Below are positions 14,372-64,000 of a stretch of 64,000 nt of DNA, one piece after another; the first letter of the stretch is position 1; each line of letters begins with the position of its first letter. Source of the stretch: an uncultured Gammaproteobacteria bacterium. Its GTDB lineage: Bacteria; Patescibacteriota; Patescibacteriia; UBA11705; JABHMO01. The notes beneath the pieces are model-generated. The model did not search any database, was not told where the DNA came from, and was given only the letters and a program-made list of their open reading frames with translations. Both the position numbers and the translations under genes were made by a program. The stretch covers positions 18,559 to 82,558 of the forward strand of contig CAZAKN010000003.1 of assembly GCA_964486065.1 (NCBI GenBank), written 5' to 3'.

Positions 14372-14400
14372 AAGCCGACTAGTTTTAGTCGGCATGATTT
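14372..14400. terminator. terminator (gccgacta-gttt-tagtcggc flanked by A/T runs) downstream of the 419-aa gene
   Basis: Perfect 8-bp hairpin. Confidence 0.7.
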
Positions 14401-16847: not shown

Positions 16848-16886
16848 AATAAACCTCCTTGAAAATTGTAAAAATAACAACATTCA

Positions 16887-17731: not shown

Positions 17732-17735
17732 TCAA

Positions 17736-17763
17736 GGCGCCCCGTCTCCAGAGGGGCGTTTTA
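17736..17763 (+). terminator. intrinsic terminator (cgcccc-gtctccaga-ggggcg-tttt)
   Basis: GC-rich hairpin plus T-run. Lies inside the track's over-extended 637-aa ORF, supporting a downstream start. Confidence 0.7.
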
Positions 17764-17768
17764 TCTAT

Positions 17769-41738: not shown

Positions 41739-41741
41739 AAA

Positions 41742-44357: not shown

Positions 44358-44362
44358 AAAAA

Positions 44363-45484: not shown

Positions 45485-45611
45485 ATCTACCATTATAGCA
45501 AATTTTTTACGGTTTTTTAAATGTGTTAACAGCAAATACTTGGATAATGATTGTCTAATTTTAGCCAATTTTGTTTAGAAGCGGTTTTTTTGCTAAGATT
45601 ATCTTATCAAT

Positions 45612-46715: not shown

Positions 46716-46717
46716 AA

Positions 46718-47836: not shown

Positions 47837-47900
47837 TAAAAAAACTGCCCCATTAAGTCATGTTGTAGAATACATAGGTGAGGCGGTTTTTGTTTTATAA

Positions 47901-49325
47901 TTACACTTTTGATTTTCGTCGTAGAACTATCCATGGAGTTTTCAGCATTATCCAAAAGTCCAATTTTAGCGACCAATTTTCAATATAATAAGTATCCAGT
48001 TTTACTTCTTCGTTAAAATCCAAATCGCTACGGCCGGAAATTTGTGCCAAGCCGGTAACTCCCGGTTTGATGTCAAGAACTCTTCTTTGCGCTTTGGTGT
48101 ATTGAGTGACTTCGCGAGGTTGATGAGGGCGAGGTCCGACCAAGCTCATGTTGCCGATCCAAACATTAAAAAATTGTGGCAATTCATCAAGTGAAGTTCT
48201 TTCCAGAAATTTACCGATTTTGGTGCGACGAGGATCGTTCAGTATTTTATAAACCGGTCCTTGTCGTTCAGATTGTTTTTCAATCAAATCTTTTTCAAAT
48301 TCCAAAACCGCTTTTTGGTCGGTGTATTTTTCAAACTGTTTACCGGTGCAATATTTGGTGTACATGGAACGGAATTTATAAGTATTAAAAGTACCTTTAC
48401 GCGTAACTCGTTCATTTTTATAAATGGCCGGACCGGAATCTTCAATTTTAATCAACAAAGCAAGCAATAACATAAGCGGTGAAAAAACAATTATCAAAAT
48501 CGTGCTGAAGACGAAGTCAATGATTCTTTTGATTATTTTACCCCAACCGTCCAACTTGGTTTTTCTGATTTCAATAATCGGCAAGCCGGCATACATGTGA
48601 AATTCCACATTGGTGGTACGAGCTTCAAATTGACCGGCGGTATATTTGAAAACAATGTTATAAGCATTGCAAAAATCCAGAAGTTTTACCGATTGACTGC
48701 GAGAAAGTCCGGCATCGGCTTGGATTATTTCATCCAAAGAATATATTTCATTTATTTTTTCCAATTCATCCTGATTGAAGTCTTTCATTTTTTTAATAAC
48801 TTTGTAACCGAATTCAGGATATTTTTTAAAATACGCGGTTAGCTCATCAGTGTATTTATCGTTGCCGACGATTACGACATTGTGCGCGCCCCAGCCTTTT
48901 TTTAAACTGTAATTTTGAACTTTGCGCATGATTATTCTGACGATTGAAACGAAAATCATGGCCAAAATCCAAGCGGTTAAAACAATAAAACGAGAAGCAA
49001 ATATTTCTCTGACAAAAAACATGTAAATCAGCACCGCGGTCATGCCCGTGGAGCAAGCTAAAATTATTTTCGCGAGTTCGTCCGTGATTTTTCTTTTTTT
49101 AAAATTGTACAATCCCGACCAAATAAAAAAAATCAGCCAAATAGTGGCGATGATTAAAGTTGAAAATAAATACGCTTTGAAAGATAATTCAAAAATTACC
49201 GGTCTGATTTCTTGAACATCGCTTTGATAACGCAAAACATAAGCTAAAAGTCCGGCTGAAATCAAAGCCAAATAATCAAAAGGAATTTTTAAAAAAGTAA
49301 AAAATAATTCGGTTTTCTTTTTCAT
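47901..49325 (-). CDS. polyprenyl-phosphate sugar phosphotransferase (WbaP/bacterial sugar transferase family)
   Basis: C-terminal motifs RTSLDELPQ and MSLVGPRP; N-terminal TM helices. Start trimmed to MKKKTELFF because the track's upstream extension overlaps rnpB. Confidence 0.8.
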   Translation of the reverse strand: MKKKTELFFTFLKIPFDYLALISAGLLAYVLRYQSDVQEIRPVIFELSFKAYLFSTLIIATIWLIFFIWSGLYNFKKRKITDELAKIILACSTGMTAVLIYMFFVREIFASRFIVLTAWILAMIFVSIVRIIMRKVQNYSLKKGWGAHNVVIVGNDKYTDELTAYFKKYPEFGYKVIKKMKDFNQDELEKINEIYSLDEIIQADAGLSRSQSVKLLDFCNAYNIVFKYTAGQFEARTTNVEFHMYAGLPIIEIRKTKLDGWGKIIKRIIDFVFSTILIIVFSPLMLLLALLIKIEDSGPAIYKNERVTRKGTFNTYKFRSMYTKYCTGKQFEKYTDQKAVLEFEKDLIEKQSERQGPVYKILNDPRRTKIGKFLERTSLDELPQFFNVWIGNMSLVGPRPHQPREVTQYTKAQRRVLDIKPGVTGLAQISGRSDLDFNEEVKLDTYYIENWSLKLDFWIMLKTPWIVLRRKSKV

Positions 49326-49383
49326 ATAATTATTATAGCACAATAAGCGTTTCAGCCGTATGTATAAAGATTTATTTCCAAAG

Positions 49384-49688
49384 CCCCGAACAAGCGAGTA
49401 AGCCGGATTCTGTTTTAACCGTAATCTATCTGGGACGACCGTCGCCGATCGCCTTAAGCGGGCTACCAAATTTGCCCTTGCACTCGAGTAAGGATTTAGC
49501 CGTTTCACCCGCCATGTTGCCATGGCGACTATTCCCGAAGGAATCCGAATCAATCACTTGATCCAGCGTCTCTGCTCGCACCTCTATCTCACGATTGACA
49601 GGAATTACCTGCTACCCGTGTTAATTGAATAACCGAGTGTCCGGACTTTCCTCCCTTGAAGAGGGTAACGGAACTGCTTGTTCGGAAC
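49384..49688 (-). ncRNA. rnpB: RNase P RNA (bacterial, compact ~305 nt)
   Basis: Minus strand reads P1 ccgaacaagc...gcttgttcgg, P4 GGGAGGAAAGUCCGGACAC, AGCAGGUAA, GGGUGAAACGGC and 3' ACAGAAUCCGGCUUA. GC-rich island inside AT-rich DNA. Confidence 0.8.
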
Positions 49689-50247: not shown

Positions 50248-51219
50248 TTATAAACCGATTTGTTTTTTAATTTTTTCCATTTTTAATTTGGCGATTTTTC
50301 CGGCTTTGATTTTACCATTTTGCAAGATTTTATCCAATTCATTGTCTTGGATTGCCAAATACTTTTCCCTGATTGGCGTTAAATAATCAATTATTTTTTC
50401 AACTAAATCTTTTTTAAAATCACCATAGCCTTTACCGTCATATTGTTTTTTAATTTGTTTGATTGTTTGATCGCTGACCAAGTGATAAATGGAAATTAAA
50501 TTACTGATCCCCGGTCGTTTTGGATCATATTGCACTGAAGCTTCCGAGTCGGTTGCCGCTTTCATGATTTTTTTCTTGATTTGTTCGGGAGAATCCGTTA
50601 AAGCTATATAATTGTATTCAGAAGCCGCGGATTTACTCATTTTTTTCTCCGGATTATCCAAGCCTTTCAAACGCGCGGCGTTTTTATTGATTTCCGCTTG
50701 AGGAATTTTTAAAATATCTCCATATTGGTGATTGAATTTTTTTGCTATGGTTCTGGTTAGTTCCACATGTTGCAATTGGTCTTCTCCTACGGGAACCATG
50801 TCAGTATCATAAAGCAATATATCAGCGGCCATTAAACAGGGATAGGTTAAAAGTCCGGCATTGATGTTTTTTTTATGTTGTTCCGCTTTGTCTTTAAATT
50901 GAGTCATTCTTTCCAGCTCGGAAATCGGAGTAAGGCAATTAAAAATCCAGGCCAATTCAGCGTGTTCCGGCACATCGGATTGTCGATAAATGATATTTTT
51001 TCGCGGATCCAAGCCACAAGCCAAAAAAATTTTTGCCAAATTGCGTATGTTTTCTTTTAATTCGGTGGAAGTGGGAGTTACGGTCAAAGCATGCAAATCC
51101 ACAATACTGAAAATGCCTTCATGTTGCTTTTGTAAATCAACCCAGTTTTTTATGGCACCGAAATAATTGCCCAAATGTATAATGCCGGTCGGTTGAGCGG
51201 CACTGTATAATCTTGGCAT
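50248..51219 (-). CDS. trpS: tryptophan--tRNA ligase
   Basis: HLGNYFGA (HIGH-type) and KMSKS motifs. Confidence 0.9.
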   Translation of the reverse strand: MPRLYSAAQPTGIIHLGNYFGAIKNWVDLQKQHEGIFSIVDLHALTVTPTSTELKENIRNLAKIFLACGLDPRKNIIYRQSDVPEHAELAWIFNCLTPISELERMTQFKDKAEQHKKNINAGLLTYPCLMAADILLYDTDMVPVGEDQLQHVELTRTIAKKFNHQYGDILKIPQAEINKNAARLKGLDNPEKKMSKSAASEYNYIALTDSPEQIKKKIMKAATDSEASVQYDPKRPGISNLISIYHLVSDQTIKQIKKQYDGKGYGDFKKDLVEKIIDYLTPIREKYLAIQDNELDKILQNGKIKAGKIAKLKMEKIKKQIGL

Positions 51220-51295
51220 AATAATGAAATTATTTGAAAGTTATTAAAATTTTATCTTAAATCAAGGAAAAAAGCAAAGATTAAATAAAAATAAA

Positions 51296-51330
51296 AGTCC
51301 CCGCCGTTGGCGGGGACTTTTATTTTGAAA
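51296..51330. terminator. terminator (aaagtccccgcc-gttg-gcggggacttt plus T-run) downstream of rnj
   Basis: 12-bp perfect stem. Confidence 0.75.
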
Positions 51331-51333
51331 TAT

Positions 51334-53106
51334 TTAAACCTCAATTACCACGGGTAAAACCATGGGGCGACGCTGGGTCTTTTTGTAAAGAAAAGTACCC
51401 ATGGCTTCACGAAGTTTGTTCTTAATATCCATGGTGTCCACATTGGCGTTGGTGTTTTTTTTCATGCAGATTTTTTTAACTAGATTTCTGGCCTCTTGAA
51501 TCAGCTCTCGGTTTTCTTTCATGTAAATAAAACCGCGAGAAATAATATCCGGACTGCCGACCAATTCGCCGGTTTTTCTTTTGATATTGGCGATAATCAC
51601 GAACATGCCGTCTTCAGCCATCATGCGACGATCTCGAAGCACGATATTACTGACATCTCCCACGCCCAATCCATCAACAAAAACATATTCGGTCGGTATT
51701 TTTTCTGGTGTTAATCTGCCGACCACTTCTCGTCCTCGTTTACTGAATTCAAATACTTGTCCATTGGCGCCGATTAAAATATTTTTCGGATCAATTCCCG
51801 ATTCGGCGGCTATTTCGCCGTGAATTTTCAACATATAGTGATTGGCTTCAATGGGAATGAAGTATTTCGGTTTGAATAAATTGATAATCAATTTTAGATC
51901 TTCTTGCTTGGCGTGTCCGCCGGCATGTACATCCAGAGATTGATAATGAAAAACCTTGGCGCCTTGTTTGTAAAAAGTATCTTTCAAGGATTGAATGGTT
52001 CTTTCATTTCCCGGAATGACGGATGAAGAAAATAAAATGGAATCGCCTTGTTTTATTTCCAGAAAACGATGCTCTTTGTTCGCGACACGCATAAGAATGG
52101 CGTTTTTTTCGCCTTGCGCGCCGGTGCCGAGAACCACCAATTTATTGTCCGGTGTTTTTTTAAATTGTGCTTCTTCTATAATAGTATTGGAATTGAATTT
52201 CAAATAGCCCAATTCGCGACAAAGTTGAACATTATTATTCATGCTACGACCTTCCAAGAGGACTTTTCTGCCGTATTTTTCAGCCAGAGTGAAAACTTGT
52301 TGGATACGATTGATCAGCGAGGCGAAGGTGCCGATAATAATTCGTCCTTCGGATTTTTGAAAAACATCTTCCAAGCTATTGGTGATTTCACTTTCTGAAA
52401 TCTGACGACCGCGATGTTCAGCATCGGTACTGTCACTCATCAGAGCCAAAACTTCGCGTCCGCCGATTTGCGCTATTTTATTTAAATCAATCGGTTTATC
52501 GTTGATCGGAGAAAAATCAAGTTTAAAATCTCCAGTATGAACGATGGTGCCGAGCGGTGTATTCAAGGTCACGCCGAAACTATCGGGGATATTGTGATTA
52601 ACTCGGAAAAAATCAACATCAAAAGTTCCCAGTTTTACCTTGTCCTTATCAGGATCAATAATTTGGATTTTCAATGGCGAAAGTTTTTTGTATTCTTCAT
52701 GGCGTTTTTTGATAAGTCCAGCGGTTAGCTTGGCCGTGTAAATGGTGGGATAGCCCAGTTTCGGCATAAGATGAGAAACCGCGCCGATGTGATCGTAATG
52801 ACCATGAGTGATTATTACTCCGCGAATATTTCGCACTTTTTTTTCAAGATAAGTAACATCGGGGATGATATAATCAATTCCCGGCATATCTTCTTCGGGG
52901 AATTGTAAGCCCATATCAATGATGACTATATCATTGCCATATTCCAAAACTGTCATATTGCGACCGACTTCTTCCAGTCCGCCCAGTACCATAATACGCA
53001 GTTTGTTTTGATTTGATTTTGAAGAATTAAAACGACGGCCGTTGCGCGCTTGGCGATTGCCAGTTTTTGGATTTGATTTGGTAGTTGGTTTGTATTTTCT
53101 AATCAT
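51334..53106 (-). CDS. rnj: ribonuclease J (MBL / beta-CASP) with a basic N-terminal extension
   Basis: VIITHGHYDHIGAV, beta-CASP and C-terminal domain; full length. Confidence 0.85.
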   Translation of the reverse strand: MIRKYKPTTKSNPKTGNRQARNGRRFNSSKSNQNKLRIMVLGGLEEVGRNMTVLEYGNDIVIIDMGLQFPEEDMPGIDYIIPDVTYLEKKVRNIRGVIITHGHYDHIGAVSHLMPKLGYPTIYTAKLTAGLIKKRHEEYKKLSPLKIQIIDPDKDKVKLGTFDVDFFRVNHNIPDSFGVTLNTPLGTIVHTGDFKLDFSPINDKPIDLNKIAQIGGREVLALMSDSTDAEHRGRQISESEITNSLEDVFQKSEGRIIIGTFASLINRIQQVFTLAEKYGRKVLLEGRSMNNNVQLCRELGYLKFNSNTIIEEAQFKKTPDNKLVVLGTGAQGEKNAILMRVANKEHRFLEIKQGDSILFSSSVIPGNERTIQSLKDTFYKQGAKVFHYQSLDVHAGGHAKQEDLKLIINLFKPKYFIPIEANHYMLKIHGEIAAESGIDPKNILIGANGQVFEFSKRGREVVGRLTPEKIPTEYVFVDGLGVGDVSNIVLRDRRMMAEDGMFVIIANIKRKTGELVGSPDIISRGFIYMKENRELIQEARNLVKKICMKKNTNANVDTMDIKNKLREAMGTFLYKKTQRRPMVLPVVIEV

Positions 53107-53210
53107 AGTATTTTGTTTAGATTAATATTTAAAGTAATAAACGAGAAGGAAAATATAAAATTGGAAGTGTTGGTATTACTTCGTGCTTCGTGGTCCGAGC
53201 ATAAATATAG

Positions 53211-55142
53211 CTATTCCCAGTTGCGAGAAGTTTTAATATACCAATTGTTAATGTTACTTAAACGATTGGCGGGAGTGATGATCTGAGTGGTTTCAAAGCC
53301 TTTGATTTTTTTGCTTTGAGGGTATGTATAAGTTGGATTGAATAAAAATATGGCGGGTACCTCTTGAGCCAAGAGTTCCTGAAAGAGACTGTATTTTTCT
53401 GCTCTGGCTTCCGGATCGCTTAGCCTTCTGGCATCCTCCAAAAGTTCATCTATTTCCGTATTTTTTACGGAAGTCAGATTAAGCCCCGGATAATCCCTTT
53501 GTTCCGAATGCCAAAAAGGGAAAGGATCTGGATCATGTCCCAATATTTGACTGTATAATAATATTTCGTAATCGCGATTTTTTATTACTTGCTGTATTTC
53601 TTCAGCGGAAACGATGTGTAAGTTCAGCTTGGCGCCGATCTGTTGCCATTCTTTTTGAACTTCTTTGGCGATTTGAACATTTTCCGGTTGGTCAACGGTG
53701 GTCAAGCTGAATTCCAAATACACCTCTTTTTTCTTTCTGACTTGGAAAGGATATTGTTCAGCCTGTTCCGTAACGGAATTGTTTTGTTCCAAGTTTTCAT
53801 CTTCTTCCGTTGACTCTTCCGAATCGTTTTCTTCCTCGGTTTCAATTACATAATCAGTCAATTTCCAGCCAGCGTTTTCCAGATCGCTTTTGGCCAAGTC
53901 GGGATTGAAAGGGAAATCGGTAATGTCCGGATTATATCCCAGCGAGCCCGGCAAAATACAAGAATTGGTGGTTTGAGCTTCGGAACGTAAAATTTCGCTG
54001 ACGATTTTTTCTTTATTGGTGGCGTTGCTGAGAGTTTCTCGCATATCCACATCTTGTAATAGGCGATTGTTGTCACCGTTAAAAAATAGCGCGGTGTATT
54101 GAGGTAAGTGTAATAAATGGAAGTTTAAATTACGATTATTGATTACGCGAGGTTGCAATTCTTTCGGCAGATAGCTGAGACCTTCAATGTTTTTATTGTT
54201 TAAAGCCGCTACCGCGGAGTCAAAATTTTCAAAAAATTTGAAAATGATTTCTTTAACATAAGGAACTTGATTATAAAAACCTTGATTGCTTTTCAGATTT
54301 AATTTTTTAATTTCCCCATTTTTGCTTTTGGTTAAAGAAACGAATTGATAAGGCCCGGAACCGATGGGTTTTAAATTATATTCCGTGATCATCATGTTTT
54401 CCGGTTCAATGTTGCTCCAAATGTGTTCCGGTAAAATTCCCACGGTCAAACTTTCCAAAAATGGAGCAAAAGGTTCTTCCAGAATGAATTCCACCGTATA
54501 TTCATCAAGTTTGGTTACTTGAATATCTTTAAAAGTAAAATAAAGCGGGGTTTTGGTTTTGGGATTTTTGATTCTGGAAAAAGTGAATTCAACATCATCA
54601 GCATCCAGTTTTTCCCCATCATGCCAATAAACATTTTGTTTTATGTGAAAAGTATATATTCTTTGGTCTTCGCTAAGTGTCCACGAGTCAGCCAAATCAT
54701 TTTGCAGGGATTGTTCCGCGTATTTTATCAAGCCTGAAAAAATCAAAGAACTGATATCAAGATCCACATCGTTGGCGCCGGCGAAAAGAGGATTTACATA
54801 TTTCGGAGAGCCAACCAGTCCTTCGGTGTAAGAGCCGCCGTCTTTCGGGCCCAGTTCCGAATGCGTCCAATAAATATTGATGCAAAGAGAAACCAAAGCG
54901 ATTAAAACAATACTGCCCAATATACGCATCAACATTTTTTCGCCATCCGACAAAAATTGTTTTAAGTGGGTCAATTGTTTGAAATTCGGAATTTTTTTCT
55001 TAGCCGTTAATTTATGCACAAGCTTTTGATCGTAAGTTTGGTATTGAAGTAATTTTGTAGCTTGCTTTTTTTTGAGACGATTGATTTTTTCGGCTTTGAA
55101 TTTAAACCAAAAATCTTTTAGTGAAGACACAAAAATTGTCAA
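53211..55142 (-). CDS. membrane-anchored solute-binding protein family 5 (OppA/DppA-like) without adjacent permease genes
   Basis: SBP-5 sequence (YTFHIKQNVYWHDGEKLDADDVEFTF) with an N-terminal TM anchor. Confidence 0.7.
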   Translation of the reverse strand: MTIFVSSLKDFWFKFKAEKINRLKKKQATKLLQYQTYDQKLVHKLTAKKKIPNFKQLTHLKQFLSDGEKMLMRILGSIVLIALVSLCINIYWTHSELGPKDGGSYTEGLVGSPKYVNPLFAGANDVDLDISSLIFSGLIKYAEQSLQNDLADSWTLSEDQRIYTFHIKQNVYWHDGEKLDADDVEFTFSRIKNPKTKTPLYFTFKDIQVTKLDEYTVEFILEEPFAPFLESLTVGILPEHIWSNIEPENMMITEYNLKPIGSGPYQFVSLTKSKNGEIKKLNLKSNQGFYNQVPYVKEIIFKFFENFDSAVAALNNKNIEGLSYLPKELQPRVINNRNLNFHLLHLPQYTALFFNGDNNRLLQDVDMRETLSNATNKEKIVSEILRSEAQTTNSCILPGSLGYNPDITDFPFNPDLAKSDLENAGWKLTDYVIETEEENDSEESTEEDENLEQNNSVTEQAEQYPFQVRKKKEVYLEFSLTTVDQPENVQIAKEVQKEWQQIGAKLNLHIVSAEEIQQVIKNRDYEILLYSQILGHDPDPFPFWHSEQRDYPGLNLTSVKNTEIDELLEDARRLSDPEARAEKYSLFQELLAQEVPAIFLFNPTYTYPQSKKIKGFETTQIITPANRLSNINNWYIKTSRNWE

Positions 55143-55146
55143 TTAA

Positions 55147-55368
55147 TTAAATGAAGATGTTGGCCAAGGAAAGGCCTAAAAAGAATATAGAGAAGATAAT
55201 TGTTAAAACAAAGATGTTTTTTTCCATGCCTCTTTTGGTGCGATAATCTCCCATTACTTCACTGCCTCCGAAAACTCCGGATAAGCCACCGCCACGATTT
55301 TGCAATAAAACCAAAACGATTAAAATTACGGCTGAAACAACTTGAGCAATACTGATAAATGTAGACAT
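55147..55368 (-). CDS. secG: preprotein translocase subunit SecG
   Basis: Two TM helices; LLQNRGGGLSGVFGG. Confidence 0.8.
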   Translation of the reverse strand: MSTFISIAQVVSAVILIVLVLLQNRGGGLSGVFGGSEVMGDYRTKRGMEKNIFVLTIIFSIFFLGLSLANIFI

Positions 55369-55506
55369 ATTTATTGAAAGATATTTAATTTTAGCGAATT
55401 TCCAATAACCACATTATAGCAATGATTATTGTCCGTGTCAATCCCAAAGCTGAAAAAACAAGCTCCAGCAGGGCTGTTTCTATGGTTTTCCACAATTGGT
55501 TAAAGT

Positions 55507-55535
55507 TTGGGAAAATAAGCAAAATTTGGTATAAT
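55507..55535 (+). promoter_or_regulatory. promoter TTGGGA-17-TATAAT for the DsbA-like gene
   Basis: Read from the sequence. Confidence 0.45.
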
Positions 55536-55552
55536 AAAAAAACAATAAATTT

Positions 55553-56302
55553 ATGATTATAAAAGATGAAAAGCAGGTGGCGGAAATCCGTCGCGAGTTG
55601 CAAATTGAAAAAAAACATTGGTACAAAAAATGGTGGGGAATCGGCATTTTGTTGTTTTTGGCGATATTTTTTGTTTTTGTTTCCATCTTTATTTATGAAT
55701 TGGTGAAACTGTATCGTGATTTTGAACAAGGAACTTTATTGCCGGATAAAGAAGCTTTTGAAAGGCAAGCTGATTACGACATGGAAATGTTTATAGACGA
55801 AAGAGTGCCGGTTTTGGGGACCGAAGACGCGCCCATTAAAATAATTGAGTTCGGTGATTTTAATTGTCCGTATTGCAAGCAAGCGGCCGGACATTTGCGC
55901 AAAATCATGAATAAGTATCCGGATCAAGTGAAAGTATATTGGTTAAATATGCCGGTGGTGACCGAAGCTTCTTTTTTGTTGGCGGCCGGCGGAGTATGCG
56001 CTCATGCTCAAGATAAATTTTGGTCGTATCATGACGCCTTATTGGATCATAGTGGAGAATCAACAGCTGAAGACATGGTGGATTTGGCCTTTGATTTAAA
56101 TATGGATGCTGAAAAATGGGATGAATGCATTACTCATAAATTAACTATAGCAAAAGTTCGCAAAGATTTATATTTATCCGAAGATGTGGACGCTCAAGGC
56201 ACTCCGACTTTTTTAATCAACGGCGTTAAAGTCGCCGGAGTGGTGACTTTGGCCAAATGGGAAGAGTTGGTGGAATTATTGTTAACCGTTTATGATCAAT
56301 AA
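55553..56302 (+). CDS. membrane-anchored DsbA-like thiol:disulfide oxidoreductase
   Basis: TM helix plus thioredoxin fold with CPYC active site (FGDFNCPYCKQ). Confidence 0.8.
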   Translation: MIIKDEKQVAEIRRELQIEKKHWYKKWWGIGILLFLAIFFVFVSIFIYELVKLYRDFEQGTLLPDKEAFERQADYDMEMFIDERVPVLGTEDAPIKIIEFGDFNCPYCKQAAGHLRKIMNKYPDQVKVYWLNMPVVTEASFLLAAGGVCAHAQDKFWSYHDALLDHSGESTAEDMVDLAFDLNMDAEKWDECITHKLTIAKVRKDLYLSEDVDAQGTPTFLINGVKVAGVVTLAKWEELVELLLTVYDQ

Positions 56303-56834
56303 TATGAAACAAATAAGAATTCACGGCCGAGGCGGACAGGGAGCGGTAACCGCTGCTGAACTTTTGGCACAAGCGGCTTTTTCCGAAGGTAAGTTTGTAC
56401 AGGCTTTTCCGAATTTCGGAGTGGAAAGACGCGGTGCGCCGGTAAAAGCTTTTGTCAGGATTTCAGGAAAAGAAATATTGGCTCGTGATCAAGTCTATTT
56501 TCCGGATTATTTAATCATACAAGATGAAACGCTTTTGTTAAATGAAAGTGAAGTTTTGCAAGGAACGGAAAAAGCCGAGATGATTATTATTAATTGTGAA
56601 ACAAGTGATTTGCCGAAAGCCGTTTGCGTACCCGCCACCAAGATCGCATTGGAAGAAATCGGTAAGCCGTTTATCAATACGCCGATGCTCGGAGCTTTTG
56701 CCGCGGCCACAGGTTTAATCAAACCGAAATCATTGGAAAAGGTATTTATGGATAGATTCCAAGGAGAAATTTTGCGGAAAAATATAAAAGCCATGAAAAG
56801 AGCTTATGATTATGTTAAATCTTTAAATTTATGA
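56292..56834 (+). CDS. porG: 2-oxoacid:ferredoxin oxidoreductase gamma subunit
   Basis: IRIHGRGGQGAVTAAELL. Confidence 0.85.
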   Translation: MINNMKQIRIHGRGGQGAVTAAELLAQAAFSEGKFVQAFPNFGVERRGAPVKAFVRISGKEILARDQVYFPDYLIIQDETLLLNESEVLQGTEKAEMIIINCETSDLPKAVCVPATKIALEEIGKPFINTPMLGAFAAATGLIKPKSLEKVFMDRFQGEILRKNIKAMKRAYDYVKSLNL

Positions 56835-57097
56835 AAATACCTTTACACGCCGACCCCGGTTCGTCTAAAGAAAATAAAACCGGCAATTGGCGCACATTTA
56901 AACCAGTAATTGATCATGATAAATGCATCGCTTGCGGGAATTGTTCCAGAGTTTGTCCGGAAGGTTGCGTTTTTCCCGCGGGAGGTAAAGCCTTGCAGGG
57001 GAAAATTTATTATGAAAAAGATTTGGATTATTGCAAGGGGTGCGGTCTTTGTGCGGAAGAGTGTCCGGTTAAATGTATTACCATGGAAAGGGAATAA
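56831..57097 (+). CDS. porD: 2-oxoacid:ferredoxin oxidoreductase delta subunit (2x[4Fe-4S] ferredoxin)
   Basis: CIACGNCSRVCP and CKGCGLCAEECP. Confidence 0.85.
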   Translation: MKIPLHADPGSSKENKTGNWRTFKPVIDHDKCIACGNCSRVCPEGCVFPAGGKALQGKIYYEKDLDYCKGCGLCAEECPVKCITMERE

Positions 57098-57111
57098 TAA
57101 TTTTCAATCAC

Positions 57112-58251
57112 ATGAAAAAATGTCTTGAAGGTTCAAAAGCGATAGCGGAAACGATTAATGCTTGCCGACCGGAAGTGGTGACGGCTTATCCGATTACTCC
57201 GCAAACGCATATCGTGGAAAACTTGTCGCAATATTACGCTGACGGTAAAGCCGATTTTAAATTTGTTCGCGCGGAAAGTGAATTCGCGGCCGCTTCAATC
57301 GTTTTAGGTGGAAGCGCGGCCGGCGCCAGAACATATACAGCCACCAGTTCGCAAGGTTTGCTTCTCATGACGGAGGTTGTTTTTACAATTTCCGGAATGC
57401 GTTTGCCGGTGGTTTTAACTTGCGCGAACAGAGCGATTTCCGCGCCGATTAATATTTGGAACGATCATCAAGATATTATGACCGTGCGTGACGCTGGTTG
57501 GCTGATTTTATTTGCCGAGAATAATCAAGAGGCGGTAGATTTTCATCCGATAGCGTTTAAGGTTGCCGAGCAATTGAAAATACCGGTTATGGTGGCGGTG
57601 GACGGATTTATTCTAACTCATACGGTGGAAGGAGTTGAATTGCCGAGTCAAAATCAATTGAAAAAATATTTACCCAAGTATAAGCCCGCCGCAGGCGAAT
57701 ATCTGGATGTAAACAATCCGGTTTCTTTGGGAGCTTTTGCCACGCCGGAACATTATCAAGAAATCAGACAAGATTTGCATGAAGATATATTGAGCGCTGA
57801 AAAAGTTTTGAAAAAAGAATTGGCGGAATATAAAAAAATTACCGGCCGAGGGAAAAAGGATTTGGTGGAATACTCTGGGCATAAAAAGCCGAAAGTGGTG
57901 TTCGTGGCAATGGGCGCGGTGGTTGGCACGGTTAAGCAAGCGGTGAACGAGTTAAACGCGGCAGGAGGGAAAGCCGGAGTTTTAAAAGTTAAATGTTTTC
58001 GGCCGTTTCCGGCAAAAGAAATACAACAAAAAGTCGGTAAATATGAACAAATCGTGGTTTTGGACAAGGATGTGTCTTTAGGAAGCGGGGGAATATTGTT
58101 CACTGAGATAAACAGTGCGTTGGCCGACAGTAAAGCTCAAGTAAAAGGAGTAATTTCAGGTTTGGGTGGTAGAGATATTACTGTTGGAAAAATCAAGGAA
58201 ATTTATAAAAAAGCGAAAACCATGAAAAAATCGCCAAGTTTTATCGCCTGA
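57112..58251 (+). CDS. porA: 2-oxoacid:ferredoxin oxidoreductase alpha subunit
   Basis: POR alpha family sequence; start at MKKCLEGSKAIAE. Confidence 0.85.
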   Translation: MKKCLEGSKAIAETINACRPEVVTAYPITPQTHIVENLSQYYADGKADFKFVRAESEFAAASIVLGGSAAGARTYTATSSQGLLLMTEVVFTISGMRLPVVLTCANRAISAPINIWNDHQDIMTVRDAGWLILFAENNQEAVDFHPIAFKVAEQLKIPVMVAVDGFILTHTVEGVELPSQNQLKKYLPKYKPAAGEYLDVNNPVSLGAFATPEHYQEIRQDLHEDILSAEKVLKKELAEYKKITGRGKKDLVEYSGHKKPKVVFVAMGAVVGTVKQAVNELNAAGGKAGVLKVKCFRPFPAKEIQQKVGKYEQIVVLDKDVSLGSGGILFTEINSALADSKAQVKGVISGLGGRDITVGKIKEIYKKAKTMKKSPSFIA

Positions 58252-58252
58252 T

Positions 58253-59641
58253 ATGATAATGCGAAAAAAAACAACTAAAAGAATAATATTGATCGCAAGT
58301 TTGGTTTTTTTAGTGGTTGGTGCATTTTCAATTATGATTGACAACTTGATTAAGCCTGTTTCAGCTCAAGATGATTCCTCATTGATTAACGATCCACGTG
58401 AATATAAATTGCGAGTGCCCATAGGTGATTTGCAAAAATTAGAATTAGAAGATGAACCGGGAGAACAGGAATGTAAGCATTATAAAGGCGGTAAATGTTA
58501 TCAAATTCCTTGGATTGCTCAGTATATTCAGGCATGGTATAAATACGCTTTGATAATCGGATCAATTTTGGCCGTAGTGTCTTTCATTGTCGGAGGAGCC
58601 ATGTATATTTTCGGAGGCATGAGTCAAAGCATGGTAACCAGAGCCAAAGAATTGATTATCGGTTCTTTGAGCGGTTTGTTATTGTTGCTAGGTTCATACA
58701 CTTTATTGCATACGATTAATCCGAATTTAGTAGACTTAACTCCCATAGAAATACCGGTTTTGAAAGGGATGTTGCAACCGCCGGAATTTTGCGAAGATAT
58801 TAATTCAGAAGATTATAAACATCATGATAAAATAGATATTTTGCAAAATGAACAACAACAACAATTTCCCCAAGGAGCGGGATGTAATACGGTTTATAAA
58901 ATTGAGTTAAATGAAAAAGGAAAAGAAGATTTTGATTTAGCGAATAATTCATGTGTTTCCAATAAATGTGAAAACCCTCAGAAAGCTTGTGTTGGGCAGA
59001 ACGGTAGCTTTAGTTGTATGGAGGTTTTGCTTGCCGGAGGAATTACTTTTCCAACTGCCATAAGTGAAGAGCTAACTCCATATATTGATGAAATGAAACT
59101 CCAAGGGACAATGGCAAATGAAAGCTATGATATAATCATGGATACGAACAAAAAATCATATTTTTTGGCGGAGGAAAAAGAGAAATTAACTTCAAATTAT
59201 TTTTATTTGGAAGTGGAAATAAATGATCCGGGATGGGACTTCAAAAAACAAGGTTCATTGGATGAAAAAATTAAAGAGCAATTAAAAGCTTATGTGAAAG
59301 CTACTGAAGACGATCATTATCGTTTGGACAAACAAGGGAATTATATAATTATGAATCCGGCTGAATCAGCTTGTTGTACAGTAAAATGCGTTAATGGTGG
59401 TCCGCATTATTTTGAAGGCTGTAAGTTGTTCAAAAATAATGATTTTGATAGAAGTGTAAATTTCAGTATTAACACGGAAAACTATTTTTGTGGAGGATTT
59501 CCCCTGGCTGAATTGGTAGAGGCCAGAAGAGAATTAACCAAAGGGACAATAACCTCATTATTTTCTTCGTTGGGGATTGATGTGGGAGGTGCTTATTGTG
59601 AATCGTCAACCGGACAAAAATATTGGGGAAATGTTGAATAA
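58253..59641 (+). CDS. cysteine-rich membrane protein (signal peptide, TM hairpin, ~300-aa Cys-rich ectodomain) inserted between porA and porB
   Basis: Signal peptide ending VSAQ; two adjacent TM helices (YALIIGSILAVVSFIVGGAMYIF / LIIGSLSGLLLLLGSYTLL); ~20 Cys downstream. Confidence 0.55.
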   Translation: MIMRKKTTKRIILIASLVFLVVGAFSIMIDNLIKPVSAQDDSSLINDPREYKLRVPIGDLQKLELEDEPGEQECKHYKGGKCYQIPWIAQYIQAWYKYALIIGSILAVVSFIVGGAMYIFGGMSQSMVTRAKELIIGSLSGLLLLLGSYTLLHTINPNLVDLTPIEIPVLKGMLQPPEFCEDINSEDYKHHDKIDILQNEQQQQFPQGAGCNTVYKIELNEKGKEDFDLANNSCVSNKCENPQKACVGQNGSFSCMEVLLAGGITFPTAISEELTPYIDEMKLQGTMANESYDIIMDTNKKSYFLAEEKEKLTSNYFYLEVEINDPGWDFKKQGSLDEKIKEQLKAYVKATEDDHYRLDKQGNYIIMNPAESACCTVKCVNGGPHYFEGCKLFKNNDFDRSVNFSINTENYFCGGFPLAELVEARRELTKGTITSLFSSLGIDVGGAYCESSTGQKYWGNVE

Positions 59642-59647
59642 AACCAT

Positions 59648-60541
59648 ATGAAATATAAAATGCCATTTAATCATTTAATAAATCCCGGACATAGCGCTTG
59701 CGCAGGTTGCGGAGAGCTTTTGGCTATGCGTCATGTTTTAAACTCGGCCGGAACAAATACCATAGTAACCAATGCGACGGGTTGTTCGGAAGTTACGACT
59801 TCGCAATATCCGCGATCAGCTTTTAAAACTCCATGGATACATGCTAATTTTGAAAACGCGGTTCCCGTGGCTTCGGGAATTTTGGCGGCTTTGGAGCAAA
59901 AGAAAAAAAATAAGGGCGTGAATATTATTGCTTTTGGTGGCGATGGCGCGACTTTTGATATCGGCATGGGGCATTTATCGGGAATGTGGGCCAGAGGTGA
60001 AAATATTTTGTATGTTTGTTTTGATAATGAAGCATATATGAATACGGGGGAACAAGCCAGTGGCTCCACGGCCAAAAACGCGGGAACCACGACTACACCG
60101 GCGGGAAAAGAAAGTCTGGGCAATGATAAAAACAAAAAAAATATGCCTCAAATAGCTTTGGCTCATAATTGCGCTTATGTGGCCACCGCCACGGTGGGGA
60201 ATATTATTGATATTCAAAACAAAGTGAAAAAAGCCTTAACCGTGCCCGGTCCGAAGTATTTGCAAATATTATGTTCTTGCGTGCCCGGCTGGAAAATAGA
60301 AAGCCAAAATTCAGTTAAAGTCGCCAAACTGGCGCAACAGACCGCGCTTTACCCGGTGCTTGAATATATTGACGGGAAATTAACCAAGGTGGATAAATGT
60401 CCCAAACCCAGACCGAAAGTTACGGAATATTTAAAACTGCAGGGAAGATTTAAACATTTATTCAAATCTGCGGAGGGTAAACGAGGAATTCAAGAGCTTC
60501 AGCAAATAGCGGATATGAACGCGGCCAAATACGGATTGTAG
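59648..60541 (+). CDS. porB: 2-oxoacid:ferredoxin oxidoreductase beta subunit (TPP-binding)
   Basis: GCGE..., GDG-(x)n-N TPP motif (GGDGATFDIG...FDNEAYMNTG). Confidence 0.85.
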   Translation: MKYKMPFNHLINPGHSACAGCGELLAMRHVLNSAGTNTIVTNATGCSEVTTSQYPRSAFKTPWIHANFENAVPVASGILAALEQKKKNKGVNIIAFGGDGATFDIGMGHLSGMWARGENILYVCFDNEAYMNTGEQASGSTAKNAGTTTTPAGKESLGNDKNKKNMPQIALAHNCAYVATATVGNIIDIQNKVKKALTVPGPKYLQILCSCVPGWKIESQNSVKVAKLAQQTALYPVLEYIDGKLTKVDKCPKPRPKVTEYLKLQGRFKHLFKSAEGKRGIQELQQIADMNAAKYGL

Positions 60542-60554
60542 TAATTTTCAAATA

Positions 60555-60590
60555 ATCAAGAACTTTCAGCTTCGGTTGAAAGTTTTTTTT
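60555..60590 (+). terminator. intrinsic terminator (aactttcagc-ttcg-gttgaaagtt-tttttt)
   Basis: Hairpin plus T7. Confidence 0.75.
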
Positions 60591-60609
60591 ATTCTTCCCG
60601 CGTTCTCCA

Positions 60610-60638
60610 TTGACCGAACCGAATTACATTGCTATAAT
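60610..60638 (+). promoter_or_regulatory. promoter TTGACC-17-TATAAT for uvrA
   Basis: Read from the sequence. Confidence 0.55.
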
Positions 60639-60690
60639 GGCAGGCAAGCATGCCGACAAGAATATGGGTTTAAAAATCATTATTTAATTT

Positions 60691-63552
60691 ATGTCAAAAA
60701 AGATCAGCATCAAAGGAGCCAAAGTCAATAATTTAAAAAACATTGATTTGGAAATACCGAGGAATAAAATGGTGGTGATTACGGGATTGTCTGGTTCGGG
60801 CAAATCATCTTTGGCTTTTGATACTATATACGCGGAAGGACAAAGGCGCTATGTGGAAAGCCTGTCTTCATACGCGAAGCAGTTTTTGGATGTAAAAGAC
60901 AAGCCCGATGTTGATCAAATTACCGGTTTATCTCCGGCGATAGCTATTGACCAAAGATATAGTGCGCAAAATCCGCGTTCCACGGTGGGGACGATTACTG
61001 AAATATATGATTTGCTAAGACTTATGTTCACTCGTATTGGGCATCCGCATTGTCCGAAATGCGGTTTGGCTGTAGCTAGACAAACCGAGGAAGAAATCGT
61101 TAATAAAATTTGGAAATTCGGTAAAGGCGTTAATGTGACGATTTTGGCGCCCGTGGTCAGAGGCCAGAAAGGGAATCAGAAAAAAGTTTTTCAAGAAATA
61201 AAAAAAGCCAGATATTATCAGGTCCGAGTTGACGGGATGATGTATGATATTGAAGAAACCGCCAAACTTAATTTGGACAAGCATAAAAGCCATACGGTGG
61301 AAGTGGTGGTGGATAGAATCCTTTTGGATAATGACAAAGAAACAAAAAAACAACTTTTGGAGGGGATTAAAATCGCCGCGGATCTGGGCAATGGGATGAT
61401 TACGGTTTTGCGTTCGGATATGTCCGGCGATATTTTGTTTAGCCAATTTTATACTTGCCCTTCATGCAACATTGACTTGCCGGAAATAGAATTGCGGAGT
61501 TTTTCTTTCAATTCTCCTTTTGGCGCGTGTCCGGTTTGTTCCGGTTTGGGGACAAAAAAAGAAGTTGACCCCATTTTGGTTATCAGTAATCCTCGTTTGA
61601 CTATCGCCGAAGGTGCCATTAAACCTTGGACGAAAATATTCGCCAATCAAGGGGCAATGTGGGAATTAATGAAAATCGTGGCGCGAAAAAATAAATTTTC
61701 TCTAGATGTGCCGGTTTCCGAGTTGAATAAAAAAGCTTTGAAAATCGTGTTATATGGCACGGGAGAAAAAGAATATGAAGTCGGTTCAAATGTGATGATG
61801 TTTGAAGGCATTGTGCCACTTTTGGAAAAGAAATACAGTCAAACCGATTCGGATTATATAAAAAAAGAAATTGAAAGATATATGCGCAGTCATGTGTGTC
61901 CGGCTTGTCATGGCAAAAGATTGAAAAAGGAAAGTTTGGCGGTAACGGTGGGAGGTTTATCCATTATTGATTATACGGATGCTGCCGTGGTTGATTTAAA
62001 AGACATGATCAATGAACTTTTGCAAAGTTTGAATAAAAAAAATCAAACGGCATTTAAATATATCAAAGAGTCTTTGCGAGAAGATGAATATAAAGTGGCC
62101 GGCACGATTATTAAAGAAATTGAAATCAGAGTTGGATTTTTGGAAAATGTGGGTCTGGGCTATTTATCTCTCGGGCGTTCGGCGAACACTTTGTCCGGAG
62201 GAGAAACTCAAAGAATCCGTTTGGCCACGCAATTGGGATCTTCTTTGTCGGAAGTGATTTATGTTTTGGATGAACCTTCAATCGGATTGCATTCGGCGGA
62301 CAACCAAAGATTGATTGACACACTCAGTGAATTACGCGACAAGGGAAATACGGTAATCGTGGTGGAACATGATGAAGCGATTATGAAAAGCGCTGATTAT
62401 ATTTTTGACATTGGGCCGGGAGCTGGGATTTACGGCGGAGAAGTGGTAGCTCACGGAACTTTGGAACAAATTGAAAATAATGAAAAATCATTGACTGGAA
62501 AATATTTAAAAGGAGAAGCGGTAATTGAATTTATTAAAAAAGGAAAGCGGGGCAAAGGAAAATTTATTGAAATCAAAGGAGCCAACGCGCATAATCTGCG
62601 AAATATTGATGTAAAAATTCCGCTCGGTAAATTGGTGACCATAACGGGCGTTTCAGGATCGGGTAAGTCAACTTTGATGTCCGGAATTTTGGCCAAAGCG
62701 GTGGCGCGACATTTTTACAAAGCCAAAGATTTACCCGGAGAACATAAAGAGATAATAGGCTTTGAAAATTTGGATAAAGTCATTTCAATTGATCAAACAC
62801 CGATCGGACGCACACCGCGTTCCAATCCGGCGACTTATACCGGCGTCTTTACCTATATCCGCGATTTATTCGCTCAAGTGCCGGAAGCCAAAATAAAAGG
62901 TTTTGATGCCGGACAATTCAGCTTCAATGTTAAAGGCGGTCGCTGTGAAGCTTGCGGAGGTGATGGTTTTATTAAAATTGAAATGAAATTTTTACCGGAT
63001 GTGTATGTGGAATGTTCGGAATGCAAAGGACGCAGATATAATAAAGAAACTTTGGAAGTGCATTACCGAGGCAAAAATATTTCCGATGTTTTAAGCATGA
63101 CGGTTACCGAAGCTAAAGATTTTTTCAATGATGTGCCGATTTTAAAAGAAAAATTAACCACCTTGGAAGAAGTTGGTTTGGGTTATATTACCTTGGGACA
63201 GCCGGCCACGACTTTGTCGGGAGGGGAGGCGCAACGCATTAAATTGGCTACGGAATTGTCAAAGTACGCCACTGGAAAAACTTTGTATATTTTGGATGAA
63301 CCGACTACGGGATTGCATTTTGAAGATATTAAAAAATTGCTTGGAATATTGAATAAATTGGTGGACAAAGGAAATACCGTGCTTATTATTGAACATAATC
63401 TGGATGTGATAAAAAACAGTGATTGGATAATTGACATGGGACCTGGTGGTGGCGATAAAGGCGGTTTGATTGTGGCGGAAGGAACGCCAGAACAAGTTGT
63501 TCAAGTTGAAGATTCGCAAACCGGAGCGTATTTAAAACAAGTTCTTAAATAA
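60691..63552 (+). CDS. uvrA: excinuclease ABC subunit A
   Basis: Two ABC ATPase modules ([18 protein letters not shown]) and zinc fingers (CPKC, CPAC, CEAC, CSEC). Confidence 0.95.
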
Positions 63553-63583
63553 AAAAAATCCCCCGCGCGGGGGATTTTTTATT
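63553..63583. terminator. bidirectional terminator (aaaaaaaatcccccgcgcgggggatttttt)
   Basis: Perfect GC hairpin with flanking A/T runs. Confidence 0.8.
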
Positions 63584-63586
63584 TAG

Positions 63587-64000
63587 TTATTTATCTTGAT
63601 TTAAAATGATATTGGCGGTGATCCGACCGCTTTCATAGATGGTCGGCAAGCCACTACCGGGATTGGTACCACCTCCCACCAAATATTGATTTTTCCCCAA
63701 GTTGTTGTGCGGTCGGAAATAAAGCATTTGGTTTAGTGAATGCGCCAAGTTGAAAGTCGCTCCCAGAAAAACATTGTAATCTTTTTCCCAATCTTGTGGT
63801 GTGATGACAATCTCCGTTTTAATATGATCGGCCACATTAAAGCCGGTTTTTTGTTTAATCTTGTCCAAGACCAAATCGCGAAAAGCTGATTTTTCCTTTT
63901 GCCAATCAATCTTTGATTTATTGTTCGGCACGGGTACCAAAACATAAATATTGGACATGCCTTCCGGCGCTAGAGAATCATCTATCGGCGAAGCGTTTCT
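63587..64000 (-). CDS. FAD-dependent oxidoreductase (phytoene desaturase / amine oxidase-like), C-terminal part; gene runs off the window end
   Basis: C-terminal FAD-binding signature YLVGGGTNPGSGLP. Reading frame stays open from 63958 to 64000. Confidence 0.55.
   Translation of the reverse strand, partial: RNASPIDDSLAPEGMSNIYVLVPVPNNKSKIDWQKEKSAFRDLVLDKIKQKTGFNVADHIKTEIVITPQDWEKDYNVFLGATFNLAHSLNQMLYFRPHNNLGKNQYLVGGGTNPGSGLPTIYESGRITANIILNQDK

Follow-up and report, generated by a model that had tools for sequence, protein, structure and literature searches.

The window, by which we mean the whole 64-kb stretch of DNA that was analysed, contains a string of genes for the subunits of PFOR that is opened by dsbA, the gene of a DsbA-like thiol:disulfide oxidoreductase (Table 1). 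Between porA and porB lies a further open reading frame encoding a protein of 462 aa, hereafter called X. It is a real gene and no chance reading frame, because homologues are known from 41 distinct loci; an alignment of three sequences served as the query for the metagenome scan. The first-pass annotation, which was made from the sequence alone, had placed a 462-aa gene inside the por string and had regarded it as functionally unrelated to PFOR. Pfam and NCBIfam identified the neighbours as por subunit genes, and the results below support both statements.

Table 1. Features of the dsbA–por locus, with positions counted from the first nucleotide of the window.
Feature	Coordinates	Strand	Evidence
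Promoter-like site ahead of dsbA, TTGGGA-17-TATAAT with TG	55507..55535	+	Consensus scan, pattern match only
dsbA, membrane-anchored DsbA-like thiol:disulfide oxidoreductase, CPYC motif, opens the unit	55553..56302	+	PF13462 2.6e-20; PF01323 4.7e-16
porG, PFOR gamma subunit	56292..56834	+	PF01558 1.3e-38; TIGR02175 199.9 bits
porD, PFOR delta subunit, 2x[4Fe-4S] ferredoxin-like	56831..57097	+	TIGR02179 93.9 bits; Fer4 families
porA, PFOR alpha subunit	57112..58251	+	PF01855 1.4e-73; PF17147 5.2e-29
X, whole gene	58253..59641	+	
X residues 1–38, predicted Sec signal peptide (RKKTTKR, hydrophobic core, VSA↓QDD)	58253..58366	+	Sequence, hydropathy
X residues 39–86, predicted extracytoplasmic N-terminal segment, conserved VPIGD, cysteine pair C74/C82	58367..58510	+	
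X residues 87–160, predicted two-helix membrane hairpin, PF18895 (T4SS_pilin)-like, INPNLV at its end	58511..58732	+	
X residues 161–462, predicted beta-rich ectodomain, 12 Cys, no known family or fold matched	58733..59638	+	
X residues 192–462, segment swapped for a divergent allele in near-identical strain L030	58826..59637	+	blastn
porB, PFOR beta subunit, TPP-binding	59648..60541	+	PF02775 1.2e-22; NF008819 344.8 bits
Terminator-like hairpin, 13-bp stem then T run, at the end of the unit	60558..60587	+	Consensus scan
Promoter-like site for uvrA, after the terminator-like hairpin	60610-60638		Consensus scan

The genes are closely packed. The 3′ end of dsbA runs 11 nt into porG, the TGA stop codon of porA ends at position 58251 and the ATG of X begins at 58253, leaving a gap of 1 nt, and X is separated from porB by 6 nt. 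Of the two spacings reported at first pass, that before porB was correct, but that after porA had been given as 2 nt. No strong internal promoter or terminator signal was detected by consensus scan. Since the run has one promoter-like and one terminator-like site and consists of overlapping or near-abutting genes, dsbA-porG-porD-porA-X-porB appears to be a single operon.

Kyte–Doolittle analysis revealed hydrophobic segments of X at residues 7–36, ~94–124, and 134–153, and AF2 modelled helices at 87–120 and 125–155 with pLDDT values of 85–94, as well as a beta-hairpin at 70–73/81–85. These data bear out the architecture proposed earlier, namely a signal peptide, two close transmembrane helices, and a domain of ~300 aa. 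The leader is predicted to be cleaved at VSA↓Q (the arrow marks the cleavage point), and orthologues carry A-x-A-like sites at the position matching VSA↓QDD. The short loop between the helices carries R129 and K132. X thus combines a leader, two transmembrane helices, and a short positively charged loop predicted to be cytoplasmic, as PF18895-type pilins do. A type IV (T4P) prepilin motif, G↓F/M-x-x-x-E, was not visible at the N-terminus of X, which reads MIMRKKTTKRIILIAS...VSA↓QDD, with no pilin Pfam match. The cysteines of X number 14, not ~20 as had been estimated, two of them before the helices (C74 and C82) and 12 after, all in segments predicted to lie outside. Orthologues show no or almost no variation at eleven of these positions, C74, C82, C180, C211, C234, C239, C246, C255, C374, C375, and C390, and conserved cysteines in predicted extracytoplasmic segments are the pattern of a DsbA substrate. 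The idea that X re-oxidises DsbA in the manner of DsbB or VKOR was rejected, as X has only two transmembrane helices and no CxxC; the spacing of the membrane-proximal cysteine pair, which varies among orthologues, also speaks against it.

The hairpin is related to the PF18895 family, with whose profile VirB2-like pilins have been identified in Patescibacteria (PMC12102498). X itself matched PF18895 over residues 87–146 with 19.7 bits (E 9.4e-4), which is below the Pfam gathering threshold of 26.6 bits. In phmmer comparisons of X with PF18895-annotated proteins, E-values ranged from 4.5e-17 to 1.6e-4, and the hairpin aligned ungapped over 82 columns with 20 proteins carrying or approaching PF18895, the shared motif being ...AKE.I.GS..GL..L..SY.LL..INPNLV. 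The profile was matched by eight of ten orthologues of X (best E 1.8e-8), and the por-embedded homologue in L008 reached 36.4 bits, above the cut-off. All ten hairpin homologues tested also matched at about 21–35 bits, with P0007 (35.5 bits), P0011 (33.6 bits), and P0008 (29.1 bits) exceeding the cut-off. By contrast, X gave no match to TrbC/VirB2 family PF04956 at E ≤ 1, and none to the NCBIfam TrbC/VirB2 models. The likeness to VirB2/TrbC noted at first pass therefore holds as homology of the hairpin to PF18895, but X as such stays under the cut-off of that family and outside PF04956. Because homologous hairpins bear unrelated cargo, for example the VanY/M15 peptidase domains found in two of them (P0006 and P0008), we favour the view that it is a putative reusable anchor module, either of the membrane or T4SS-associated. 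SLT-like and 3D-like peptidoglycan-hydrolase domains, read by eye in P0003–P0005 and P0007, were dropped because Pfam did not confirm them at E ≤ 0.001.

The same homology raises the question of whether X is a genuine pilin of a T4SS. In that case, a machine of the VirB4 type, encoded elsewhere in the genome, would extract X from the membrane and polymerise it, and the pilus subunits, or a minor or tip subunit, would display the cysteine-rich domain. VirB2-like genes of Patescibacteria often lie away from virB4 and were found near it in only 1,135 of 1,948 Patescibacteria assemblies (PMC12102498). The size of X, however, is not that of a small protein consisting essentially of the hairpin: its 462 aa include ~300 aa after the hairpin, and the mature form of ~424 aa is about four times as long as a pilin. 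The known packing of VirB2 leaves little room for 300 additional residues on each subunit. Furthermore, X was the sole hairpin-domain ORF of the 64-kb window, with no second PF18895-like ORF, and neither T4SS genes (virB4, virB6, or virB3) nor a pilin array were found among the 20 other large ORFs of the window that were tested. Sequence profile searches against the PDB, performed with the whole family and with the hairpin alone, retrieved no solved pilin, and their matches to sialostatin and to transmembrane helices of the sensory rhodopsin transducer were at chance level. We consider it unlikely that X is a pilin.

The ectodomain belongs to a rare family, with 10 matches among 1.84 billion representative proteins, to which a word-indexed protein search with orthologue profiles added few further members. 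Its cysteine scaffold is conserved among orthologues, and in por-embedded homologues the ectodomain measures about 100 to 560 aa and contains 10–44 cysteines. From the orthologue alignment, AF2 produced a model with a mean pLDDT of 71.8 and values of 80–92 over much of the ectodomain; with a mixed alignment, the ectodomain was of low confidence. A Foldseek search of the ectodomain model against PDB and BFVD returned nothing at E ≤ 0.001. Its top matches, AcrA/MexA-type adaptors, transthyretin, and cadherin, superimposed with an rmsd of ~8–23 Å and were treated as noise.

Most of the ectodomain has been exchanged between closely related strains. By blastn, the window and L030 were 99.45% identical up to position 58825 and 98.1% identical from position 59638, and nothing aligned between these points. 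The flanks of the swapped segment differed by 0–8 mismatches per 250 nt, while the two ectodomain alleles shared 27–44% protein identity. Comparable sharp drops in identity were observed between L008 and L009, between L012 and L013, and between L037 and L034/L033. This is allele replacement with sharp boundaries; we infer recombination as its mechanism, and the ectodomain is, judging from these comparisons, under diversifying pressure. The contig of L030 bears single-base indels, and for this reason its allele could be a pseudogene and not a working variant.

The order of the surrounding genes is stable. Apart from the window, 18 distinct loci in genomes and metagenomes of Patescibacteria have a homologue of X directly after porA, and porB lies downstream of it in 11 of the 11 loci with enough downstream sequence. 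The Por subunits of this porA-X-porB clade are only 46–77% identical to those of the window, and the order RNaseJ-SBP5-SecG-dsbA-porGDA-X-porB...uvrA is identical in L035, L037, and L040. The dsbA-porG-porD-porA-X-porB order is an old, conserved feature of the clade. It led us to reject a recent insertion of X and contradicts the first-pass impression of an interruption peculiar to the source genome. No description of X between por genes was found in the literature.

The pairing with dsbA extends further than the por genes. In 23 of 28 evaluable loci, dsbA is located upstream of the X homologue on the same strand; the presence of a DsbA-like gene ahead of X, already pointed out at first pass, is confirmed by the PF13462 and PF01323 matches, and its link to X is strongly backed by synteny. 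At a number of loci (L001–L004, L006, L010, L017, L020, and L023) dsbA-X occurs without por genes, with dsbA immediately ahead of the X homologue, but in the same SBP5-SecG...UvrA neighbourhood, from which it follows that dsbA-X is no younger a unit than the por association. A midpoint-rooted NJ tree of DsbA places the por-containing loci in one group, with a bootstrap of 87. This topology fits a single interleaving of the por genes with dsbA-X; repeated losses of por would also be compatible with it.

That the position is kept in 18 loci might reflect a functional link between X and PFOR. In its strongest form, X would be an accessory or membrane-tethering subunit of PFOR, or its regulator, which would explain why the slot after porA was kept while the Por proteins diverged to 46–77% identity, and with it the tight spacing to porA and porB. 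However, X orthologue-like genes persist beside dsbA at the por-less loci and so do not co-occur with por in every case, as a subunit or accessory protein of PFOR would. Only the ~12-residue inter-helix loop is predicted to reach the cytoplasm, where PFOR works. The greater part of X varies extremely and differs by allele replacement between near-identical strains in which the porA and porB flanks stay 98–99.5% identical. The slot also tolerates unrelated cargo, since toxin–antitoxin genes occupy it in relatives. X is thus conserved in relatives, but not as a characterised por subunit, and we regard an accessory function in PFOR as highly improbable.

A further possibility is that X represents passenger DNA. 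As a selfish or mobile cassette, it would hitch-hike in the por operon with no role tied to its neighbours. The GC content of X (0.35–0.36, compared with 0.40–0.46 in the por genes) agrees with this, as do the toxin–antitoxin modules and the 23S_rRNA_IVP gene found in the por operon of relatives and the exchange of the ectodomain by recombination. On the other hand, the ORF lists contained no transposase, integrase, or repeat boundary, and the position is kept across deep divergence, with the por-containing loci forming one group in the DsbA tree. That X is almost always paired with dsbA points to a functional couple maintained by selection. Such a passenger status is very unlikely in our opinion.

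We favour, with a probability of about 0.6, the explanation that X is a DsbA-dependent, hairpin-anchored, diversifying surface protein encoded in a dsbA-por operon and, we infer, taking no part in PFOR catalysis. The following mechanism was deduced from sequence, topology, and synteny. The Sec signal peptide would be removed, and the VirB2-like PF18895-type hairpin would hold X in the cytoplasmic membrane with both ends outward, so that the basic loop alone would remain in the cytoplasm. The segment with the cysteine pair and the ~300-aa, 12-Cys C-terminal domain would be exposed outside, where the membrane-anchored DsbA of the same transcription unit would form disulfides that stabilise them. 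Recombination between the conserved region encoding the hairpin and porB would exchange the ectodomain as a cassette. The ectodomain may serve to contact or recognise a host or some other cell or surface, or may itself be a target that is forced to vary. The location, cysteine content, and variability of the ectodomain suggest adhesion or recognition, and X probably has a role in cell–cell or host contact.

Several known systems resemble X in part. Pilins of the VirB2-like type occur widely among Patescibacteria, and in the one species tested, Southlakia epibionticum, an array of them is essential (PMC12102498, PMC12857230). These PF18895 pilins share with X the signal peptide, the two-helix hydrophobic hairpin, and the short basic loop, with clear sequence homology in the hairpin; they come from the same phylum and also show sequence-divergent paralogues or alleles. 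Unlike them, X has a segment of ~50 aa with a cysteine pair before the hairpin and a ~300-aa ectodomain with 12 Cys after it, and it is located neither in an array nor, within the window, beside virB4, but in a dsbA-por operon. In CPR bacteria (Peribacteria), cysteine-rich extracellular proteins that vary between strains were interpreted as serving attachment (PMC4736985). As compared by their description, they are similar to X in being extracellular (by prediction in the case of X), rich in cysteines, and strain-variable, but they are very large (~1,655 aa on average), and neither a PF18895 anchor nor por embedding was described for them. The TrbC/VirB2 pilins of diderm T4SS (PF04956; Agrobacterium VirB2 and RP4 TrbC) likewise have a cleaved leader, two transmembrane helices, and a short cytoplasmic loop; X is much larger and lacks any PF04956, NCBIfam, or PDB pilin match.

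Plasmid- or island-borne DsbA homologues serve specific pili or secretion systems, an example being F-type TrbB. As in such systems, an extracytoplasmic protein with many cysteines (X, by prediction) and a thioredoxin-fold oxidase are encoded in one unit and their pairing is conserved, but dsbA and X are parted by three genes of one cytoplasmic metabolic enzyme. In capsule and O-antigen loci, variable surface genes are flanked by conserved housekeeping genes, which serve as homology arms. X resembles them in the sharp allele replacement between highly conserved flanks, here the hairpin-coding part and porB; unlike them, it exchanges one domain of one gene, and the arm on its right is provided by a gene of the same operon that encodes a metabolic enzyme.

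A more speculative extension, which we put forward tentatively as possible though not the likeliest course, is that the slot from the hairpin to porB is a dedicated exchange site for determinants of host or partner specificity, with the PF18895 hairpin acting as a general module for surface display or T4SS delivery of variable cargo and not as a building block of a pilus. The conserved flanks, a pilin-like module on the left and an essential PFOR gene on the right, would serve as homology arms, and naturally competent Patescibacteria would swap ectodomain cassettes between strains. Embedding in the dsbA-por unit would guarantee expression of X alongside core energy metabolism.

A large part of bacterial diversity belongs to Patescibacteria, most of which live attached to other cells; little is known about how they recognise and hold their partners. 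The VirB2-like PF18895 proteins form one of the most abundant families specific to their lineage. The present data suggest that the PF18895 hairpin also anchors large domains, predicted to be disulfide-rich, which are swapped between strains, that such a hairpin protein has a dedicated DsbA partner, and that in one clade this pair became wired into the operon of PFOR, a key fermentative enzyme. X is a concrete candidate for a determinant of host specificity or surface variation, easily found between porA and porB, and a clear case of an unrelated, putative envelope gene stably retained in a central-metabolism operon. Should the por linkage be merely historical, it would be a tidy example of operon mosaicism; should it be functional, it would represent a new coupling of energy metabolism with surface display. 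A minor point of annotation concerns the start of porA: the longest ORF begins at 57073, and the public gene call on the identical contig L005 uses 57112.

Six same-strand genes, dsbA, porG, porD, porA, X, and porB, formed an unbroken run according to ORF calls and Pfam and NCBIfam assignments, with an 11-nt overlap between dsbA and porG. The first-pass annotation had given 2 nt between porA and X and 6 nt between X and porB; the first gap was corrected to 1 nt between the porA stop and the X start, and the second agreed with a porB start 6 nt past the X stop. A near-consensus promoter for uvrA followed the terminator-like hairpin found downstream of porB by the consensus scan. The simplest reading of the sequence is that dsbA-porGDA-X-porB is probably one transcription unit.

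Features of the window discussed in the text
Feature	Position	Strand	Evidence and remarks
ComEC competence channel gene	5993-7465	+	
Envelope cluster	39765-49553		DUF11, DUF4012, three GT4 glycosyltransferases, Bac_transf gene
Bacterial RNase P RNA, class A	49383-49684	-	107 bits
Promoter-like site	55507-55535		Just upstream of dsbA; consensus scan
DsbA-like oxidoreductase	55553-56302	+	PF13462 (2.6e-20), PF01323 (4.7e-16), CPYC motif, N-terminal hydrophobic anchor
porG	56292-56834	+	Pfam/NCBIfam por families
porD	56831-57097	+	Pfam/NCBIfam por families
porA	57112-58251	+	Pfam/NCBIfam por families
ORF X	58253-59641	+	462 aa
porB	59648-60541	+	Pfam/NCBIfam por families
Strong terminator-like hairpin	60558-60587		Just downstream of porB; consensus scan
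ORFs of 264-637 aa	2544-3803; 14400-15659; 16089-16883; 17538-19451	second and third -	No Pfam match at E<=1e-5

An X-like gene was found at 41 distinct loci by scanning species-representative genomes and metagenomes and then running tblastn with proteins of the window. It directly followed porA in 18 of them, and porB lay downstream in all 11 loci with sufficient downstream sequence. The insertion of X in the por operon, noted in the first pass, thus holds as a porA-X-porB position but is not peculiar to one genome, given these 18 other loci. In three nearer relatives (L035, L037, and L040; Por subunits 57-77% and UvrA 70-76% identical), the order was the same as in the window: RNaseJ, SBP5, SecG, dsbA, porG, porD, porA, X, porB ... 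uvrA. Remoter genomes labelled Parcubacteria, Falkowbacteria, or 'Patescibacteria group' (Por 46-57% identical) carried dsbA-porGDA-X-porB in other surroundings. Some of these por-containing genomes had two tandem X-like genes, and in some HigB/HigA-like, YafQ/RelE-like, and DUF2283 toxin-antitoxin genes stood between X and porB. Small ORFs occupied this gap in loci L007 (2098-3061), L008 (10733-11814), L012 (7787-8216), L013 (12324-12756), and L019 (10620-11171). Domain scans of the first two revealed a HigB-like toxin with an HTH antitoxin, a YafQ/RelE/ParE-like toxin, and DUF2283; the ORFs of the other three were likened to these by sequence only. The X-porB slot gathers unrelated cargo within the por operon in relatives; that X itself is a selfish passenger is very improbable. 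A gene for a 23S_rRNA_IVP (four-helix-bundle) protein was located between porD and porA in L019 (8066-8311) and L026 (775-1143), which makes porD-porA a second insertion point in these two relatives.

Other relatives, Magasanikbacteria MAGs included, had SBP5-SecG-dsbA-X-uvrA without any por genes. The DsbA-like gene reported upstream of X was confirmed, and one occurred likewise in 23 of 28 evaluable loci. In a DsbA NJ tree, por-containing loci clustered together (bootstrap 87), and por-less loci fell into several clades outside. Since the pairing is kept with or without por across loci, the dsbA-X couple is the stable core. The interleaving of por with it is, judging from gene order and the tree, apparently one ancient trait of a particular clade; either por was interleaved with the couple or the por-less forms arose by loss.

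The first 38 residues of X comprised a basic n-region, a hydrophobic core, and VSA|QDD, at the position of which orthologues had A-x-A-like sites. Residues 39-86 contained a conserved 'VPIGD' motif and a cysteine pair, C74 and C82, whose segment was a beta-hairpin in the AF2 model. They were followed by two long helices (residues 87-160) linked via GGMSQSMVTRAKE and ending with the motif INPNLV, and by a beta-rich ectodomain with 12 cysteines (residues 161-462). The whole protein contained 14 cysteines rather than the ~20 counted initially; all 14 lay in segments predicted to be extracellular rather than within the membrane, and 11 were invariant or nearly invariant among orthologues. We do not think that X is a subunit of pyruvate:ferredoxin oxidoreductase (PFOR) because PFOR is cytoplasmic, whereas only ~12 residues of X are predicted to be so, and because X persists without por. 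Given the same two points, a role as PFOR accessory protein is very improbable.

X scored 19.7 bits against the Pfam family PF18895 (T4SS_pilin), under the cut-off of 26.6 bits. Twenty database homologues, almost all annotated as PF18895, matched X via the hairpin region, and its 82-residue hairpin domain aligned with them with zero gaps. PF18895 was detected at 21-35 bits in all ten re-scanned homologues, in 8 of 10 orthologues, and at 36.4 bits in a por-embedded homologue of another genome (L008). The VirB2/TrbC-like topology guessed initially therefore reflects real homology of the hairpin. PF18895 and TrbC/VirB2 PF04956 are the two Pfam profiles with which Quinonero-Coronel et al. supplemented their T4SS component set to search Patescibacteria for VirB2-like pilins, reporting them in 1,948 assemblies (PMC12102498); in Southlakia epibionticum, an array of VirB2-like pilins is essential (PMC12857230). 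X is an atypical PF18895-type protein: it is four times too long for a typical PF18895 pilin and, in contrast to the pilin arrays, is the sole hairpin-domain ORF within the 64-kb window. No T4SS genes were found by profile scan among the 20 other large ORFs of the window, X did not match PF04956 in the Pfam scan, and profile searches of PDB sequences with the X family and hairpin gave no match to solved pilins. With the hairpin homology on one side and these differences on the other, a true pilus subunit is unlikely. In two homologues, P0006 and P0008, PF18895-like hairpins were fused to VanY/M15 D-Ala-D-Ala peptidase domains, so that in other Patescibacteria the hairpin serves cell-wall enzymes as an anchor too. 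Such other cargo suggests that it is a reusable anchor module.

Among 1.84 billion representative proteins, exhaustive searching with HMMER turned up only 10 relatives of the ectodomain (best full-domain E ~1e-9). They shared a cysteine scaffold and the motifs YYLxxEVND, GNPI, CCTYxC, and IDIDTxKFxCG; some possessed long EGF-like Cys-rich tails. Longer orthologues (P0023, P0024, P0028, P0029, L031, L035, and L040) were extended past the common ectodomain by EGF-like or Dickkopf-like Cys-rich repeats totalling 200-300 residues, with up to 44 cysteines per whole ectodomain. AF2 modelling of X with the orthologue alignment gave a mean pLDDT of 71.8, with 80-92 across much of the ectodomain, for which Foldseek detected no significant fold match in PDB or BFVD.

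A contig of another sample, L030 (ENA ERZ1757541 contig_11447), was 99.45% identical to window positions 50257-58825 and 98.1% identical to 59638-64000. Positions 58826-59637 (X residues 192-462) had no nucleotide similarity in L030; the junctions were at X codon 191 and at the X stop codon, and porB differed at 2 of 900 nt. The replacing segment codes for the same kind of domain with a protein identity of only 27-44%. Single-base indels break up X, porB, uvrA, and a tRNA synthetase gene in L030, resulting either from long-read assembly error or from gene decay in that strain. Similarity was also lost sharply just past the hairpin in further comparisons: L008 with L009, L012 with L013 (second copy), and L037 with L034/L033. 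Ectodomain length in por-embedded homologues varied between about 100 and about 560 residues, and the cysteine count between 10 and 44. Because of these sharp allele replacements and the wide range of size and cysteine content, the pattern is a signature of a surface-exposed part pressed to vary and recombined between conserved flanks. Within uvrA (61138-62637), five of six blocks had 8-14 mismatches per 250 nt to L030, compared to 0-5 in neighbouring DNA; this may be a second recombination tract. The ComEC gene in the window bears on the idea of allele exchange via transformation.

Taking together the observed hairpin homology, cysteine positions, conserved gene order, dsbA pairing, and allele replacement, we propose that X would be co-transcribed with PFOR, exported by Sec, and cleaved at its leader. 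The hairpin would insert in the membrane with both ends outside, the co-encoded DsbA would make the disulfides, and the ectodomain may serve to contact or recognise some other cell or surface. Published work covers PF18895 pilins and the arrays they form close to virB4 (PMC12102498, PMC12857230), as well as extracellular proteins of CPR bacteria that are rich in cysteine and vary between strains (PMC4736985). We found no description in the searchable literature of a Cys-rich protein that is held by a hairpin, has its own DsbA, and is encoded in the porA-porB interval, nor of ectodomain cassette exchange at that site. The locus combines envelope and central-metabolism genes in an odd yet stable mosaic and, under the proposed mechanism, would offer a good way into the study of host specificity or surface variation among Patescibacteria. 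In the window as a whole, RNase P RNA was the sole Rfam match.
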